A stretch of DNA of 5,521 bases from a virus. Taxonomy: Duplodnaviria > Heunggongvirae > Uroviricota > Caudoviricetes. The DNA lies in the IMG/VR virus record IMGVR_UViG_2695420569_000017; one strand, 5' to 3'. Positions 1,738 through 5,521 of this stretch are shown piece after piece (position 1 is the stretch's first letter; each line of letters opens with the position of its first letter). Both the position numbers and the translations under genes were made by a program. The notes beneath the pieces were generated by a model. That model saw nothing but the letters and a program-made list of their open reading frames with translations, ran no database searches and was not told where the DNA came from.

Positions 1738-1770
1738 CCCCGGTATCAGCAGATACCGGGGTTTTCTTTC
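1738..1770 (+). terminator. Rho-independent terminator: 10-bp GC-rich perfect stem, 4-nt loop, T-rich tail
   Basis: CCCCGGTATC (1738-1747), loop AGCA (1748-1751), GATACCGGGG (1752-1761), then TTTTCTTTC (1762-1770) on the plus strand. The minus strand has an A-rich leader and only a weak T-rich trailer, so the main activity is expected on the plus strand. Confidence 0.7.
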
Positions 1771-1870: not shown

Positions 1871-1968
1871 GCGTTAGTGTTTTTTTGCCCGAGTAACAAA
1901 AACAACTCCTTAACATTGATCTTCATTTGTCTGTCCCCGCAGCTCCGCGATCACTGCGGGATTTTTTT
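1871..1968 (+). ncRNA. Putative prophage-encoded small RNA (~100 nt) running from the predicted promoter to an intrinsic terminator; identity unknown
   Basis: The promoter at 1837-1864 is followed about 70 nt later by a terminator hairpin and T7 tail (1935-1968). The interval has no start codon with a ribosome-binding site and no ORF. It contains an internal T7 run (1880-1886) and a CA-rich stretch AACAAAAACAAC (1895-1906), an architecture typical of Hfq-dependent sRNAs. Boundaries are predicted, not measured. Confidence 0.45.
1935..1968 (+). terminator. Rho-independent terminator: GC-rich stem followed by a T7 tract
   Basis: CCCGCAG (1936-1942) pairs with CTGCGGG (1954-1960) around an 11-nt loop, followed by A then TTTTTTT (1962-1968) on the plus strand. 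The minus strand has no T-tract after the stem, so read-through from I to J on the minus strand is not blocked. Confidence 0.65.
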
Positions 1969-4004: not shown

Positions 4005-4333
4005 CAGTTCACCACCTGCTTAAACTCCGCGCTGAACTCAACGCGCAACATCCCGACCCGCGCAGACCACCCGGCACAGGTCACCTTTATCTGCCGGTAT
4101 GCATAGGGTGGCTTCCACAAAAATGCCTTCCAGCCACCGTGCTCTGCCAGGAACGCTTCCAGATGCCGGGCCTCCTCCCGGGTCACGGAAAGCGTCACCC
4201 TGTATGTTTTCAGGTCAGCATTCAGCCCTGCCGCCATACGCTGTGAGTACCCGTCACCAAAACGCACTTCACGCACCGACGGCTGCGAGTTCACCTCCAT
4301 ATCCGGCTTCACTTTCCAGCGAAAGGTTTTCAT
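4004..4333 (-). CDS. M: Minor tail protein M (109 aa)
   Basis: ORF-track protein MKTFRWKVKPDMEVNSQPSVREVRFGDGYSQRMAAGLNADLKTYRVTL... has the same length as lambda gpM (109 aa) and sits between H and L. Its ATG at 4333 overlaps the H stop (ATGA). Confidence 0.9.
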   Translation of the reverse strand: MKTFRWKVKPDMEVNSQPSVREVRFGDGYSQRMAAGLNADLKTYRVTLSVTREEARHLEAFLAEHGGWKAFLWKPPYAYRQIKVTCAGWSARVGMLRVEFSAEFKQVVN

Positions 4334-5521
4334 CCACCGCTCCCTGATAACATACCGCCATCACGCAACTGCAGCCGGAGTTCATCCTGTGCCCCCTTGC
4401 GGGCCATCTCATACACCGCTTTCATCAGCTGCGGCCCTGCCCGCCCGTTGGGGCCGTCGTTCTGAATCACCACGTGATTGTTCTGATTAAAATTAATGCC
4501 TTCCGCCCGCCGCATCTGCGCCGGACTTCCGGCACCGCCGACATAACCACCTTCCGCATAGCCCCGCATCAGGCGGTACAGATTGCCGACACCAATCCGG
4601 CTGGTCGCCTCCTTCGTGAAGACAAACTCCCCGCGATGAACAATCCCCGCAGGTTCATATTTACCCCCCCGTCCCCGTAAATCCCCCGGTCGCGAAATGG
4701 AAGTTCGCCGCCGCAGCCTGAATGGCCGTCCCCGTGGAGGCAGACGCACCACCACCGAAAGTACCGCCAATGGCGCTGCCGATACTCCCGACTATCCCCA
4801 CCATCGCCTGCTTCAGAAAAATCTCTGTCAGCATGGACAGCACAGAACGGGTGAAACCACGCCAGTTCTGTTCGCTGCCGGTCAGCATCGCTGCCATATT
4901 CTGTGCAATACCGTCAAAGGTCTGCGTGGCCGCGTTTTTAACCTGCGAAAAACTGTCCGTCGCACTTTCCGCCCACTCGCCCCAGCCGGACTTCATCCCG
5001 GCCATCCAGCTTCCACGAAGCTGCTCCTCCGCAGACCAGGTGTTCTTCAGTGCAGATGTGGCCTTCGCCAGCGCAGCCGGATTATCACCGTACACCTCAC
5101 GAAGGCGCTGCTCTTCCGACTCCCGCTGCGCCTGACGGTCGGTGAGTCCGCGGGCTTTTGCGCTGATTGCCGCCTGCTTCGCGCTCTGCTGCTGTTCAAA
5201 CCGCGCCGCCTGCTGTGCCAGCTCATTCAGCCGCTTCTGGTGTTCAATCTTGTCTCCCAGCTCAGCCAGCTGGCGTTTGTACTCCAGCGTCTCTTTCTCA
5301 TGAGCCAGCAGGGATTTTTCCTGCTCAGATAACTGCCGTTTCGTGGCGGCCTCTTTCAGGACCACATACTGATTTTCCGCTTCCCATAAATCCCGGCGCT
5401 GCTGGCTGATTTTCTCATTCACACCGCTGTGTTTTTCCAGCGTCCTGAGCTCGGTTTCAAGCGCCAGCATGGCTGCATGCGCCCGGTCTTCCTGGCGCTC
5501 ACCGGCAGACACCTTCACACC
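4330..5521 (-). CDS. H: Tail tape measure protein H, C-terminal portion (5' end beyond window); reading frame interrupted by an apparent +1 frameshift in a G7 run at 4664-4670
   Basis: Two adjacent minus-strand ORFs in different frames (4661..5518 and 4330..4770) together reproduce the lambda gpH C-terminal region: ...ATGGFTGTGG ends at a stop in one frame and GGKYEPAGIVHRGEFVFTKEATSRIGVGNLYRLMRGYA... continues in the other. Removing one G from the G7 run (C7 on the plus strand) restores ...FTGTGGKYEPAGIV.... The upstream part is Q/E/K-rich and coiled-coil-like, typical of tape measure proteins. Confidence 0.8.

Follow-up and report, generated by a model that had tools for sequence, protein, structure and literature searches.

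A putative two-way intrinsic terminator between tail genes I and J of a lambda-like Escherichia coli prophage

What is a strong terminator-like hairpin doing inside a phage tail operon, in the gap ahead of gene J and next to the promoter of a small RNA that is transcribed the other way, and which of the two strands does it serve? The question is raised by a 5,521-nucleotide stretch of an IMG/VR virus record (hereafter the window), in which the minus strand bears the tail operon (H-M-L-K-I-J) of an E. coli prophage that is lambda-like and of the PPompW/ASU11 type.

The I–J gap, its hairpin and the PasB gene

On the minus strand, the window encodes, in this order, a partial H (tape-measure), M, L, K, the tail assembly gene I (1974–2654, which precedes the spacer in the late operon) and the first 1631 bases of the tail-tip / host-specificity gene J (1–1631; translation MGKGGGKAHTPREAKDN..., annotated as J in phage ASU11 and in the PPompW phages). 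The start codon of J occupies positions 1631–1629, with a Shine-Dalgarno sequence, AGGGGAAGG, around 1636–1644. The gap between I and J measures 342 bp, as opposed to 60 bp in lambda, and its GC content is 39–48%, compared with 55–65% in the flanking genes. Positions 1600–2000 are 99.8% identical to the PPompW-type prophages of Shiga-toxin-producing E. coli and to phage ASU11. Identity to ASU11 amounts to 99.7% in the gap itself (1632–1973), 95.9% in J, 97.4% in I, 92.5% in K-L-M and 91.5% in H; the gap is more similar than its flanks and so has moved recently and independently of them, in keeping with mosaicism. In H, a run of seven C residues (4664–4670, minus strand), one base longer than in ASU11, splits the gene into two overlapping reading frames (4661–5518 and 4330–4770). 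Either the prophage is defective through a frameshift, or the homopolymer was misread in sequencing.

The hairpin lies between the end of I (1974) and the start of J (1631), upstream of the J ribosome-binding site. Motif scanning and folding place it, on both strands, at 1738–1761, where CCCCGGTATC (1738–1747) pairs with GATACCGGGG (1752–1761) in 10 perfect base pairs, seven of them G-C, around a loop (1748–1751) with the sequence AGCA (plus strand) or UGCU (minus strand). The hairpin alone has a folding energy of -18.5 kcal/mol on the plus strand and -19.1 kcal/mol on the minus strand. As RNA, the segment 1725–1775 reaches -27.2 kcal/mol on the plus strand, where shuffles give -10.3 +/- 2.4 (z = -7.0), and -26.0 kcal/mol on the minus strand (z = -5.2); none of 200 shuffled sequences did as well on either strand. 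These values bear out a preliminary description of the window, which had recognized here a strong intrinsic terminator with a 10-bp perfect GC-rich stem and a T-rich tail on the plus strand. That tail reads TTTTCTTTCA from position 1762; its U-run, TTTTCTTTC (1762–1770), immediately follows the stem, with UUUUCUUUC starting within the 0–2 nt past the stem that we allowed. The minus strand has GTTCTCTTTA after the stem, and its U-run, in the sense of the late operon (1729–1737), is the complement of AAAGAGAAC, which in the window is GUUCUCUUU. The A-rich left flank AAAGAGAAC and the T-rich right flank TTTTCTTT prolong the palindrome to 1729–1769. A single palindromic hairpin with an A-run on its 5' side and a T-run on its 3' side has the layout of a bidirectional terminator. 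The terminator of the PasB RNA (see below) is the only other strong terminator-like hairpin in the window, the remaining hairpin matches having stems of 5–6 bp, almost all within coding sequence. The structure is very probably a functional Rho-independent terminator of a known kind; from sequence comparison we infer termination in vivo, its strand and its purpose, as set out below.

The small RNA encoded in the same gap is PasB, an Hfq-dependent 83-nt sRNA known from RIL-seq in enteropathogenic E. coli (EPEC) E2348/69, where it is encoded between I and J of prophage PP6. The window's PasB (1886–1968, plus strand) matches that of E2348/69 at 82 of 83 positions, and the published Northern probe, AATCCCGCAGTGATCGCGGAGCT, is the exact reverse complement of 1941–1963. 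The RNA has its own terminator at 1944–1968. A promoter scan detected the pasB promoter at 1837–1864 on the plus strand (TTCACA-16 nt-TATAAT, 11 of 12 matches, conserved in related loci), from which the primary 5' end is predicted at about 1871, some 15 nt upstream of the published one; the 83-nt RNA may be a processed form, or the published end may be approximate. From the end of the T-run (1770) to the start of the -35 hexamer (1837) there are 67 nt, close to the 65 nt estimated earlier, and the hairpin itself is 76 nt upstream of the pasB -35 and some 105–107 nt from the J start codon. Standing upstream of the -35 rather than downstream of the sRNA, the hairpin does not qualify as the terminator of the pasB cassette.

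AgvB was considered as the identity of this sRNA and ruled out, its site being downstream of pR'. In the pasB alleles compared (loci L020, L029, L055, L057, L063 and L080, among others), the terminator and a block upstream of the -35 (GAATAAAAnTTCTGAA...TTCACATTT) are common to all, and the promoter spacing and the 5' (seed) part of the RNA vary; the allelic differences in the seed part suggest different target sets. Tree et al. (2014) describe EcOnc22, EcOnc23 and EcOnc24 of enterohemorrhagic E. coli (EHEC) Sakai as Hfq-bound candidates of about 85 nt that are destabilised without Hfq. These three are PasB-family alleles in the I–J gaps of Sakai Sp15, Sp14 and Sp11, respectively, and the sequence of one CLASH read attributed to EcOnc24 is that of the sRNA in the Sp11 gap (NC_002695.2, ~2166830–2166889; old Sakai coordinates run ~128–136 below those of NC_002695.2). 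None of the paper sections consulted states this equivalence.

Variation of the gap in related prophages

The gap was classified in 72 IMG/VR loci in which J is 93–100% identical to that of the window and both I and J could be placed. In 51 of them, a gap of 234–260 bp (type 2) contains pasB together with a different hairpin between the pasB promoter and J; E2348/69 PP6, Sakai Sp11 and Stx1a and Stx2c phages have this arrangement as well. The arrangement of the window, pasB and the window's hairpin in 342–343 bp (type 1), is found in eight loci. The remaining 13 have a gap of ~850 bp with a sodC cassette that brings its own plus-strand terminator.

On the late-operon strand, the type 2 hairpin reads CAGGCAYCC-TCCG-GGRTGCCTG followed by TTGTTTTTG. 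On the strand that corresponds to the plus strand of the window, it is preceded by an A-run and has no T-run after it, so it is expected to terminate transcription of the late-operon strand alone. This hairpin and its U-run are constant among loci whose adjoining J leaders fall into four or more unrelated versions and whose sRNA bodies represent several alleles. Stem positions form standard pairs in 98% of cells, and one pair is altered on both sides (CG to UA), a weak covariation that was reached by 39 of 500 shuffles; two variants give G-U pairs on the sense strand (10 loci) and one gives a mismatch there (2 loci).

In the loci with sodC, which encodes a Cu,Zn superoxide dismutase, the cassette replaces the pasB promoter and the pre-J hairpin, and the promoterless 3' two-thirds of pasB remain (L012 and 12 others). 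A uniform scan detected no sense-strand terminator in these 13 loci, and none was seen in the 13-nt I–J gap of phage mEp013, which has no hairpin; the element is dispensable. With its pasB alleles and sodC, the I–J gap is a hot spot for inserted cassettes.

The window's hairpin belongs to a lineage-specific segment (1632–1810) whose limits on both strands, set by alignment and gap classification, are the J start codon and a conserved block ahead of the pasB promoter. These 179 bp stand in for a shorter segment of most PasB loci. Of 5426 complete E. coli genomes, 1446 have them at 95% identity or more, and the matches listed carry no annotated feature on the segment. An exact-match scan with one genome per species detected the hairpin only in Escherichia albertii. 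A search for distant BLAST matches in phages returned just the same 13 records and no origin elsewhere, and the apparent second place of the hairpin in each phage record proved to be the palindrome matching itself. No Rfam family was detected at E < 0.8 anywhere in the window. A coding reading of the hairpin was considered and rejected: the reading frames that run across it (77 and 66 amino acids on the minus strand, 44 on the plus strand) had no Pfam match and no PHROG match below E = 0.17. The annotation of ASU11 includes the 66-aa frame, as a hypothetical protein.

Among 115 IMG/VR copies of the segment, the flank that precedes the stem is AAAGAGAAA in 97 (giving the minus-strand tail UUUCUCUUU), AAACAGAAA in five, AAAGAAAA in four, as in Sakai Sp12, where the stem occupies 2217497–2217520 of NC_002695.2 and the palindrome is perfect across 18 bp per arm, and AAAGAGAAC, with the C at 1737 of the window, in two. 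The plus-strand T-run is altered in a single one of the 115 loci, which has one T fewer, and a stem variant, CCTCGG, of one window-type locus forms a G-U wobble on the plus strand only. Window-type copies are near-identical and hence give a covariation test of the structure no power; assignment of the strand by wobble pairs or variant counts was likewise abandoned for both the window type and type 2, in which the variants are too few. Two rearrangements have breakpoints at the palindrome, a possible fragile site. In strain NZRM4165, the A-run is fused directly to the interior of gene I by a deletion that takes out the hairpin, pasB and the end of I; in one further locus (L147), the sequence diverges within the 5' arm of the stem.

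Strand and role of the hairpin

Hairpins were scored in the style of d'Aubenton-Carafa, by hairpin energy per nucleotide and a weighted U-run score. The d formula was used uncalibrated, with modern energies, and gave d = -15 with a simple parse for the experimentally supported PasB terminator, so the values are rough. The window's hairpin has d = -9 on the minus strand, under the threshold, versus +33 (tail score nT = 4.15) on the plus strand, the highest among all hairpins compared. On this same rough scale, the common variant (A at 1737) has d = +22 in the sense and +33 in the antisense orientation, and the Sakai Sp12 variant has d = +34 on the minus strand. The sense-strand U-run, present in the common and Sakai variants, is weakened in the window, whose minus-strand tail opens with a G on account of the C at 1737; this lowers the score from +22 to -9. 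In this window, the plus-strand orientation is the stronger one, owing to the A-to-C change at 1737, and the window taken alone favours it. In the uniform scan, the hairpins of lambda, HK633, Klebsiella phage F13 and type 2 loci scored above zero in the sense orientation and below it in antisense, and only the window-type hairpin was positive on both strands.

Unrelated sense-strand hairpins thus recur before J in lambda, HK633, F13 and type 2 loci, and a pre-J role on the minus strand fits this recurrence best. At little better than even confidence, we favour the reading that the window's hairpin is a two-way Rho-independent terminator with a conserved role on the minus strand, the sense of the late tail operon, and represents the pre-J terminator of this lineage. 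The preliminary description had mentioned that the hairpin might attenuate tail-operon read-through into J; the recurrence of pre-J hairpins argues for that part of it, but the window's own minus-strand tail, with its lowered score, speaks for a weakened version of the element.

Lambda-like tail operons would, on this account, commonly retain a stem-loop with a U-run in the short gap between I and J. In the present lineage, the pasB cassette would have been placed between I and the pre-J terminator, and everything between the J start codon and the pasB promoter would have been exchanged for a 179-bp piece with an unrelated, stronger and palindromic terminator. In a lysogen, which has no Q, polymerase leaving I or running antisense through pasB would be released before J and the genes beyond, which are predicted to be shielded from transcription in that state. 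Q-modified polymerase of lambda reads through terminators; after induction, such polymerase coming from pR' would pass this one, and the hairpin would stay in the late mRNA some 105 nt ahead of J. By virtue of its A-run and T-run flanks, the element might also stop plus-strand antisense polymerase from J before the pasB promoter, a secondary and lineage-specific property.

That late-strand RNA runs out of gene I in uninduced cultures is shown by a single RNase E CLASH hybrid from uninduced Sakai, which consists of minus-strand RNA complementary to the pasB terminator (ECs2162/ECs2945 3'UTRs, in Sp11 and Sp15, old coordinates 2166752-2166730 and 2902797-2902774, minus strand). No minus-strand promoter-like site was found within 1700–2300.

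If the preferred reading is right, the hairpin adds one example to a rule that seems to have drawn little notice, namely that lambda-like tail operons retain a pre-J terminator despite overriding it with an antiterminator of their own, and cassettes such as pasB and sodC get inserted next to it. It calls for no new mechanism; its use would be in annotating prophage transcription units and in making clean pasB deletions that spare the J leader, as the hairpin marks the upstream boundary of the pasB unit.

The preliminary description had also offered two plus-strand roles, both of them possible and neither gaining independent support here. The first is insulation of the sRNA promoter from antisense transcription out of J. 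In the form considered here, which we regard as unlikely although it fares best among the alternatives, the hairpin would work essentially on the plus strand only and halt polymerase arriving antisense from J, or from further left in the prophage, ahead of the pasB promoter 67 nt downstream, which might otherwise be occluded. Of the two orientations in the window, that of the plus strand scores best (d = +33 versus -9 by the rough score above), the T-run is altered in one of 115 loci as compared with three variant forms of the A-run in 11 loci, and one stem variant turns into a wobble pair on the plus strand alone, but these variant counts are too few for significance. There is no plus-strand promoter-like site in the 1.6 kb of J contained in the window from which such polymerase might come, and untranslated antisense RNA is normally removed by Rho, which also counts against this role. 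Moreover, the 51 type 2 loci among the 72 relatives, as well as the strain in which PasB was characterised, have no plus-strand U-run at this place, so PasB evidently needs no shield.

The second proposal, a terminator for another small plus-strand RNA, is improbable. Such an RNA would measure ~70–110 nt and be antisense to the J leader, and its promoter would be at 1663–1692 (TTGCCA-18-TATCCT, 9 of 12 matches) or at 1625–1653 (TTCCCA-17-TAAATT, 8 of 12). Both are weak, as had been said of the elements around 1663–1691, and about 1.8 such sites are expected by chance in the window. A transcript of 1699–1770 (72 nt) would have a typical sRNA shape, with a 5' hairpin, an A-rich linker and the terminator hairpin with its U-tail, and folds at -31.9 kcal/mol (z = -7.0), a z-score that comes mostly from the terminator itself. 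Conservation provides no test, since the segment is almost invariant. In Sakai, which carries the same segment in Sp12, the I–J gap of this prophage has no Hfq peak among the 60-odd candidate sRNAs, and the RNase E CLASH tables examined have no entries for ECs2235/ECs2236. HnrS (EcOnc10–12, a 66-nt RNA with an intrinsic terminator, from Sp9/10/12) was tried as the plus-strand RNA that ends here and rejected, as its sequence maps between the lysis and terminase genes.

We give equally little credence to a role as an RNA stability or processing element of the late mRNA, which would guard the I-proximal fragment from 3' exonucleases or the J-proximal one after cleavage of a PasB:anti-PasB duplex. 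Read-through by Q-modified polymerase means that in lytic growth the hairpin can only fold in mRNA, the late transcript includes, just ahead of it, a full complement of PasB, and similar pre-J hairpins occur in a Klebsiella siphovirus. A stability hairpin needs no U-run, yet the sense-strand U-run is kept in every version.

A further reading, to which we assign slightly less weight still, is that the terminator sets the 3' end of a minus-strand anti-PasB RNA coming from I or upstream of it, which would be a perfect complement of PasB ending in an Hfq-binding hairpin with a U-tail and might act as a sponge. In both spacer types, a sense-strand terminator directly follows the region antisense to pasB, an arrangement that would suit such an RNA. 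The level of the RNA would follow late or stray transcription of the tail operon and so couple the state of the prophage to the PasB regulon.

Least of all do we expect the hairpin to be without current function, whether as a terminator that outlasted its cassette or as a scar of recombination that travels with the pasB module. In favour of this, the gap is a cassette hot spot and the segment a low-GC island, the near-identity of its copies may reflect recent spread and not selection, and the sodC loci manage without the element. Against it, a non-homologous replacement has again put a sense-competent terminator in this place, and four further lineages have one there too.

Comparison with known terminators of phages and bacteria

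The closest counterparts of the window's hairpin are found in the same gap of other phages. In lambda, the I–J gap contains AAACCGCC-TGCG-GGCGGTTT followed by TGTCATTTAT (J02459, 15463-15482), 24 nt before J. This hairpin is terminator-like on the late strand and unannotated in the J02459 record. It is present in 79 of 80 lambda-like IMG/VR loci, with the stem unchanged and the loop variable in 75, and with a stem variant, GAGCCGCC...GGCGGCTT, that has one compensatory pair change in another four. Like the window's hairpin, it is a sense-strand stem-loop with a subsequent U-run, UUUUGUCAUUUAU, ahead of J. Unlike the latter, it has a stem of 5–8 bp and no pasB cassette beside it, and it is competent in the sense orientation only (d from +10 to +19, versus -17 to -27 in antisense, by the same rough score). 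Our literature search yielded no paper on a lambda I–J terminator, and the sole annotation that we saw is in the record of HK633 (NC_019719.1), where the depositors marked a rho-independent terminator, GCCACC-TCCG-GGGGGC followed by TTTTTTT (14462-14484). This one also lies between an I-like (gp18) and a J-like (gp19) gene, combines a GC-rich stem-loop with a U-run on the sense strand and is located inside an operon that is served by an antiterminator. It differs from the window's in its unrelated sequence, in being one-directional, in its distance of 11 nt rather than 107 nt from J and in having no sRNA gene between I and the terminator.

In the siphovirus F13 of Klebsiella, the I–J gap carries AGCCTGGGGGC-GTA-GCCTCCGGGCT followed by TTTTTGTCG on the sense strand; its relatives we take to be T1-like virulent phages. 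The type 2 hairpin resembles that of the window in its place between the pasB promoter block and J, in its 9–10 bp GC-rich stem and in its sense U-run. It cannot be aligned with the window's hairpin, has no plus-strand U-run (antisense d from -13 to -62, again on the rough scale) and lies 42–66 nt from J.

E. coli has bidirectional intrinsic terminators between convergent genes. They share with the window's hairpin the palindromic stem and the A-run and T-run flanks, but no convergent gene pair ends at the latter. Transcription toward it would come from I and the late operon on the minus strand; on the plus strand there are only weak promoter-like sites upstream, and no transcription unit is known to reach the hairpin from that side.

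Moron cassettes of lambdoid phages, units that bring along a promoter and a terminator for their gene (Cumby et al. 2012, PMC3594210), provide a similar setting, as the hairpin lies in a low-GC insert of the late operon beside an autonomously transcribed sRNA cassette. Unlike a moron terminator, it is upstream of the pasB promoter and outside the pasB unit. Also comparable is tR', the terminator of Stx phages at which the StxS sRNA ends (Sy et al. 2020, PMC7547250). It too is located inside a Q-controlled late transcription unit, where it works in the lysogenic state and gives way to Q; it differs in its position directly after pR', its mapped 3' ends and its known RNA product.

The segment that contains the window's hairpin cannot be aligned with those of the lambda, HK97-type or type 2 hairpins. 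The resemblance is one of position and architecture only, which makes the hairpin an analogue, not a homologue, of these pre-J terminators, and the features in which it is unusual among them are its bidirectionality and its location 107 nt from J, beside the pasB promoter.
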